DNA from: Escherichia coli
GTDB lineage: Bacteria > Pseudomonadota > Gammaproteobacteria > Enterobacterales > Enterobacteriaceae
Assembly: GCF_003334385.1 (NCBI RefSeq)
Contig: NZ_QOWN01000026.1
Reading direction: 5' to 3' (one strand)
DNA: 64,000 nt
Part shown: in pieces, positions 34,524 through 34,551 of the stretch
Layout of the letters: every line of letters starts with the position of its first letter
Position numbering within the stretch: position 1 is the stretch's first letter
Notes under the pieces: model-generated
Database searches by the model: none
Told to the model about the DNA's origin: nothing
What the model saw: only the letters and a program-made list of their open reading frames with translations
Position numbers and translations under genes: made by a program

Positions 34524-34551
34524 TATCTGCCCCGATAAAACGGGGCAGATA
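34524..34551 (+). other. Perfect 11-bp-stem hairpin just downstream of the ygaQ stop
   Basis: TATCTGCCCCG-ATAAAA-CGGGGCAGATA; no clear U-tract on either strand. Confidence 0.5.

Follow-up and report, generated by a model that had tools for sequence, protein, structure and literature searches.

The 28-nt hairpin between the ygaQ pseudogene and csiD (glaH) in this Escherichia coli DNA is best explained as the stem-loop at the 3′ end of the ygaQ transcript. We put the probability at roughly 70% that this stem-loop is both a weak intrinsic terminator and a protective structure, with Rho working downstream, and that it derives from a canonical terminator or is equivalent to one. It is an ordinary 3′-end hairpin, not a novel type of element, and the gene that it follows was acquired horizontally. 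In the window (the whole 64,000-nt stretch analysed here, from contig NZ_QOWN01000026.1) the hairpin is probably vestigial or idle, because the ygaQ copy beside it carries three nonsense codons and the gene has been described as lying in H-NS-silenced DNA. The elements referred to below are the following.

32261–34513, + strand: ygaQ reading frame, 750 codons, encoding an alpha-amylase-family glycosyl hydrolase (from translation against the intact gene of strain GN05505)
32591–32593, 33296–33298 and 34100–34102, within that frame: ygaQ nonsense codons, at codons 111, 346 and 614, respectively
34524–34534, + strand: 5′ arm of the hairpin, TATCTGCCCCG (from sequence and folding)
34535–34540, + strand: loop of the hairpin, ATAAAA, the first base of which is polymorphic in E. 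coli (A in 2,740 genomes, C in 1,311)
34541–34551, + strand: 3′ arm of the hairpin, CGGGGCAGATA (from sequence and folding)
34552–34566, + strand: interrupted U-rich tail, ATATGTTTAGTTTAC, seemingly a degenerate counterpart of TATTTTTTGTTGT in Escherichia albertii
34580–34607, + strand: weak second hairpin, GCAGTGAA-GCCA-TTTACTGT, then TTTTTTAT (from folding)
34600–34720, + strand: C-rich, G-poor untranslated tract, a candidate rut-like Rho-loading region (from the C/G ratio)

The two arms form 11 Watson–Crick pairs, none of them imperfect and seven of them G–C, around the 6-nt loop. The stem starts exactly 10 nt after the TAA of the ygaQ frame (34511–34513), on the coding strand, as the initial annotation had described. 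Folded alone as RNA, the hairpin has an energy of −19.9 kcal/mol. Its z-score in a 53-nt context is −5.7, with none of 200 dinucleotide shuffles folding as well, and in a 111-nt context it dominates the fold (z-score −4.8; 0 of 200 shuffles as good). Perfect hairpins with a stem of at least 11 bp and a loop of 3–10 nt occur four times in the window, against about 0.1 expected in randomised windows (mean of 0.12 in block shuffles and 0.09 in first-order Markov sequences), and the hairpin is therefore more than a product of chance. The transcribed-strand RNA thus has the GC-rich, stable stem-loop of an intrinsic terminator, placed 3′ of a stop codon on the coding strand, and no other terminator in the window has as strong a stem. 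The remaining perfect hairpins lie at 4794–4821, 6807–6834 and 21866–21894. Judged by eye, the ones at 4794–4821 and 21866–21894 have A and T runs on both sides, like bidirectional terminators, and the one at 6807–6834 resembles a REP element (GTGCCGGATG...CATCCGGCAC), unlike the ygaQ hairpin.

The window and E. coli K-12 MG1655 are collinear, with six mismatches in 8 kb. MG1655 coordinates equal window coordinates plus 2,754,136, which places the hairpin at NC_000913.3 2,788,660–2,788,687, with the ygaQ pseudogene upstream and glaH (csiD), the ATG of which is at 34849, downstream. Each of the three in-frame nonsense codons in the window replaces a Trp of the intact 750-aa protein of other E. 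coli strains, and the frame has no frameshift. Many E. coli strains, such as GN05505, keep the intact gene; ygaQ is annotated as a pseudogene in MG1655, and some other strains carry an internal stop. The gene has been described as H-NS-silenced and horizontally acquired, with spurious internal promoters (PMC7229825). A 110-aa ‘YgaQ’ of W3110 was characterised as a flap nuclease that gives resistance to mitomycin C (PMC4725251). Its 110 residues correspond to the N-terminal part of the amylase-family pseudogene that precedes the first nonsense codon (codon 111; window 32261–32593).

The E. albertii orthologue connects the hairpin with intrinsic termination. The YgaQ protein of E. albertii is 60% identical to that of E. 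coli and its gene has the same synteny, immediately upstream of csiD. The orthologous hairpin, ACTCTGCCCTG-TATAAATTCT-CAGGGTAGAGT, with an 11-bp stem and a 10-nt loop, lies 17 nt past the E. albertii ygaQ TAA. It is followed by the U-tract TATTTTTTGTTGT (TATTTTTTGTTG; clean tail, UAUUUUUUGUUG), in which seven of the first eight nucleotides are T, with a run of six. The E. albertii ygaQ hairpin is thus a predicted canonical intrinsic terminator, which our lax consensus scanner missed solely through its 8-nt limit on the loop. In a MAFFT alignment the two 5′ arms are in register on a common TCTGCCC core, and the stem pairs 1–11, read from the outside in, are as follows.

E. coli: T-A, A-T, T-A, C-G, T-A, G-C, C-G, C-G, C-G, C-G, G-C
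E. albertii: A-T, C-G, T-A, C-G, T-A, G-T, C-G, C-G, C-G, T-A, G-C

Between these two lineages, the two available for comparison, 7 of the 22 stem bases differ, yet each of the 11 pairs can still form, with three double compensatory changes, one change from G–C to G–U and no broken pair. Seven random substitutions preserved all 11 pairs in 4.6 × 10⁻⁴ of one million simulations. The loop, the spacer and the tail and other flanks have meanwhile diverged almost beyond alignment. Pairing that survives seven substitutions amid such diverged flanks requires selection on the pairing along at least part of the tree. This selection has not been absolute, since one of five E. albertii strains has a U–U mismatch in the stem (−15.4 versus −19.6 kcal/mol in context). 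The comparison also points to the strand. As + strand RNA the E. albertii hairpin has an energy of −17.7 kcal/mol, which falls to −12.5 kcal/mol in the − strand version, where the G–U pair becomes a C–A mismatch, so that this pair is tolerated only in + strand RNA. The hairpins of the two species are likely to be homologous rather than independently acquired and, under either origin, the comparison indicates that a + strand RNA hairpin just past the ygaQ stop has been selected. The initial annotation had set the hairpin apart from canonical intrinsic termination. That separation does not hold for an element whose orthologue keeps the stem by compensation and has a canonical U-tract; the E. coli element appears instead to be a terminator hairpin with an eroded tail.

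The two hairpins share a GC-rich 11-bp stem with a short loop, 10–17 nt past the stop on the coding strand, and the stems are orthologous, with the common core and the compensatory changes described above. They differ in what follows the stem, which in E. coli is AUAUGUUUAGUUU and in E. albertii UAUUUUUUGUUG, with longest U runs of three and six, respectively. The E. coli tail, AUAUGUUUAGUUUAC, is an interrupted U-tract in which AUAU adjoins the stem. Its 15 nt (ATATGTTTAGTTTAC) contain nine T in total, with no run longer than three, and its first eight nucleotides (AUAUGUUU) contain five U, at which a lax terminator-consensus scan still flags the hairpin as terminator-like. The position-weighted T-score of the E. 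coli tail is 1.2–1.4, compared with 3.2–3.6 for the E. albertii tail and 3.1–3.5 for clear terminators in the window; this score follows the T-weighting scheme of the d’Aubenton-Carafa discriminant and serves here as a relative measure. The statement that the hairpin lacks a U-tract is mostly right, by the longest T run and the T-score, but the lax rule, with five T in the first eight positions, is passed.

A second, weaker hairpin with a U6 run begins 29 nt after the main one (eight pairs, including two G–U; −7.7 kcal/mol). It is present in the K-12-like lineage, where together with its U6 it may contribute to termination. Its pairing is disrupted by substitutions elsewhere in E. coli, and we ruled it out as a ‘real’ conserved terminator.

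Farther on, 50–170 nt downstream of the ygaQ hairpin, the C/G ratio of the untranslated tract reaches 2.3–3.7 in 78-nt windows, and most of these values exceed the 99th percentile of the window, 2.43. By composition this tract may be a rut site. E. albertii also has a tract with more C than G, and such a tract therefore cannot separate the two modes of termination.

These features resemble a known class. [quoted passage not shown] The same authors suggested that low-U stem-loops may be inefficient intrinsic terminators with Rho as a backup, and that terminators can switch class through their U content. Like members of that class, the ygaQ hairpin lies just past a coding region, is similar to an intrinsic terminator in stem, loop and energy, has less U after the stem and is followed by a C-over-G tract. 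Unlike them, it keeps five U in the 8 nt of its tail, which places it between the two classes.

We propose that the hairpin would act as + strand RNA at the 3′ terminus of the ygaQ transcription unit, and that it either derives from a canonical Rho-independent terminator, of the form found after E. albertii ygaQ, or is the equivalent of one. With the U-tract interrupted in E. coli, the hairpin alone would probably stop RNA polymerase only inefficiently. Read-through RNA would expose the untranslated C-rich, G-poor tract, on which Rho could load and terminate transcription before the csiD promoter; the 3′–5′ exonucleases PNPase and RNase II would then trim the RNA to the stable stem, so that the 3′ end of the mRNA is both defined and protected. 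We infer termination itself, the involvement of Rho and protection from exonucleases from the features described above. The earlier idea that the hairpin is an RNA stability element is a reasonable one. It is also conceivable, if rather doubtful, that the E. albertii and E. coli hairpins are a natural case of a terminator that switched class, in either direction, between an intact U-tract (intrinsic termination) and an eroded one (weak termination, with Rho and trimming).

The hairpin belongs to the island and not to csiD. The whole segment from the end of ygaQ to the start of csiD is present in 4,071 of 5,426 complete E. coli genomes, at 95–100% identity. B2-type strains (for example, O18) have another island instead, without ygaQ; they match the window only from about 34650 onwards and keep the csiD promoter without the ygaQ island and without the hairpin. 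Against E. albertii the junction is at about 34712. The hairpin accordingly sits about 100 nt inside island-specific sequence, outside the csiD control region. In BL21(DE3), the end of an IS1 abuts position 34559 (junction 34558/34559), 7 bp past the hairpin, and everything to the left, including the hairpin, is gone. In strain 2018-11-1BCC, an IS1-associated deletion of the island extends to about 34782, about 67 bp before the csiD ATG. Because the hairpin is absent whenever the island is (in B2 strains and in the IS1 deletions) and B2 strains retain the csiD promoter, we assign it to the ygaQ island and regard it as dispensable for the control of csiD. It had been placed at the boundary between the AT-rich island and the csiD control region. 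This is correct in terms of composition, as the GC content is 0.29–0.42 through the island to about 34800 and 0.52–0.61 beyond, in csiD and lhgO, but not in terms of the junctions, from which the hairpin lies about 100 nt inwards.

The control region of csiD (glaH) is well studied and depends on sigma-S and CRP. What we take to be its CRP site, from the sequence and the regulation of csiD, lies near 34715–34731, about 170 nt downstream of the hairpin. The deletions in BL21(DE3) and 2018-11-1BCC are two independent IS1-associated losses of the island with different end points just upstream of csiD, and the one in 2018-11-1BCC would remove the CRP site, given this placement. In B2 strains, an integrase-bearing island stands in place of the ygaQ island. 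Judged by eye in O18, the sequence at its edge, GGACTCGGGTTCAACTCCCGCCAGCC (5490–5515 of the O18 segment), looks like a duplicate of the ssrA (tmRNA) 3′ end, in the manner of an attachment-site repeat, and is followed by a canonical terminator-like hairpin (AAAGCCCGC...GCGGGCTTTTTT).

Within E. coli, the hairpin varies little. The exact 40-mer around it was found in 2,740 genomes and the version with C for A at the first loop base in 1,311, always as one copy per genome and always between ygaQ and glaH/csiD; together these versions account for 4,051 of the 4,071 carriers, and the stem is unchanged in both. Among nine aligned strains with an intergenic divergence of at most about 4%, all 22 stem bases are invariant, and of the 28 nt only a loop position is polymorphic. 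An invariant stem fits a structure, although it is weak evidence for one, as it is expected at such low divergence.

The element belongs to no repeat or known RNA family. An Rfam scan of 33500–35500 with E-values of up to 10 gave only chance-level matches far below the gathering scores. With up to three mismatches allowed, the only match in the window was the hairpin itself, and the exact hairpin pattern had no match in 100,044 species-representative genomes. REP and BIME elements are similar in being intergenic, stable and imperfectly U-tailed palindromes that could block exonucleases, but REP is a multi-copy consensus family, whereas the ygaQ hairpin occurs once per genome and belongs to no Rfam family. 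We rejected a REP or BIME repeat on copy number, given one site in each of the 2,740 + 1,311 genomes and the single match in the window.

The protein has a similarly narrow distribution. A peptide-pattern scan with E. coli YgaQ had no match in the 100,044 species genomes, and among 5.8 billion protein clusters YgaQ was limited to the types of E. coli and E. albertii, with no third lineage, the next relatives being about 35–39% identical or less. A search of 1.8 billion representatives returned C-terminal YgaQ fragments with 67–85% identity; we rejected these as diverged lineages, as we checked most of them and all proved to be ordinary E. coli apart from one bisulfite-derived sequence. The fragment with 67% identity (Logan SRR12931382) is E. 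coli sequence in which every C is read as T, from the assembly of a bisulfite-converted library; such contigs can show up as false ‘diverged homologues’ in protein collections. One metagenomic relative with 35% identity has an 11-bp perfect hairpin, GCAGTCTGTCT-N13-AGACAGACTGC, 38 nt past its stop (6514–6548 of its segment), and that hairpin is also without a U-tract (tail, ACATTCCAGC).

Three published maps of RNA 3′ ends are silent at this site. The curated Term-seq data of Adams et al. 2021, TERMITe 2025 and TRS 2023 all lack a 3′ end at MG1655 2,788,660–2,788,700 (27886xx/27887xx), and none of these tables has entries for ygaQ, csiD or glaH; the Rho table of Adams et al. 2021 has no + strand region at the hairpin. 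This silence, probably a consequence of the gene being silent, is weak evidence and does not refute our explanation, because the maps cover K-12 or other strains under conditions in which ygaQ is a silent pseudogene and few transcripts should reach the hairpin. Adams et al. 2021 do list an ‘orphan’ Rho-termination region on the − strand inside ygaQ, at MG1655 2,787,904 (window about 33768), which implies that the island is transcribed in antisense and that Rho ends this transcription.

The hairpin could instead be a fully competent intrinsic terminator that works without Rho, its strong stem offsetting the interrupted tail, perhaps with help from the hairpin and U6 at 34580–34607. The lax scan (11 pairs, seven G–C, five T in eight), the strongest stem among the terminators of the window, the canonical orthologue and the presence of the second hairpin 29 nt on in this lineage are all compatible with this. 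We nevertheless consider it unlikely, given a T-score of 1.2–1.4 against 3.1–3.5 for clear terminators, AUAU next to the stem with no U run longer than three, the established requirement for a U-rich tract of 7–8 nt as a module of such terminators (PMC6061677), and a second hairpin that is broken in other E. coli lineages. At the other extreme, the hairpin could be a neutral relic of an ancestral terminator, without function in E. coli even where ygaQ is intact, that has had too little time to decay. The low diversity of E. coli (95–100% identity) makes the invariant stem uninformative on this point, ygaQ is a pseudogene in the window and in K-12 and has an internal stop in some other strains, and the three published tables show no 3′ ends at the hairpin. 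Against neutrality, all 11 pairs have survived seven substitutions although the flanks and loop have diverged almost beyond alignment, and many E. coli strains retain an intact 750-aa gene; we find a mere relic quite improbable.

The remaining explanations move the function from the + strand RNA to the DNA or to the other strand. The initial annotation raised the possibility of a protein-binding site, and a perfect 11-bp inverted repeat near a composition boundary, with an IS1 junction 7 bp away in BL21(DE3), might indeed be a binding site for a dimeric protein, a cruciform or a recombination site at the border of the island. The comparative data speak strongly against any such palindrome acting as DNA, which we regard as very improbable. 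The half-site sequence differs between species (7 of 22 stem positions) with pairing kept, the opposite of how a recognition site behaves, and the G–T pair of E. albertii would be a mismatch on one arm of DNA extruded from the duplex. The repeat is a single locus with a second copy in no genome, and the junctions of the island with B2 (about 34650) and with E. albertii (about 34712) are at other positions. The B2 csiD promoter is normal and runs without the hairpin, and the junction in BL21(DE3) stems from an IS1-associated loss of the island, which has a counterpart at another position in 2018-11-1BCC. A − strand role, in which the hairpin would terminate transcription or form the 5′ structure of an antisense RNA, is suggested by a promoter-like match, ATGACC-16-TATTAT (34576 to 34549), the −10 hexamer of which overlaps the 3′ edge of the hairpin, and by the antisense transcription within ygaQ noted above. 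To this we give next to no weight. Promoter-like matches occur at chance frequency (3 found versus 3.5 expected in shuffles), and a start about 7 nt past the −10 hexamer would fall within the hairpin, such that the RNA could not hold both arms. With a score of 1.03, the − strand tail, TAACATTAAATTATA, has less T than its + strand counterpart, the C–A mismatch weakens the E. albertii hairpin on the − strand, and no gene converges on the site. We rejected both a − strand promoter and a − strand terminator on the basis of the chance-level match, the start inside the stem, the T-poor tail and the lack of a convergent gene.

A + strand 3′-end stem-loop, weak as a terminator by itself, thus remains our preferred explanation. 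It matters little beyond annotation: the ygaQ transcription unit gains a 3′ boundary, and the hairpin is placed in the horizontally acquired ygaQ island instead of in the control region of csiD (glaH). A further suggestion is a means by which transcription of the island could be stopped from entering csiD. The hairpins of E. coli and E. albertii could make a small, clean test case for what the U-tract contributes when the stem does not vary, and for the switch between the intrinsic and Rho-dependent classes of terminator. If the pair did switch class, the proposal of Dar and Sorek 2018 would have a concrete instance.
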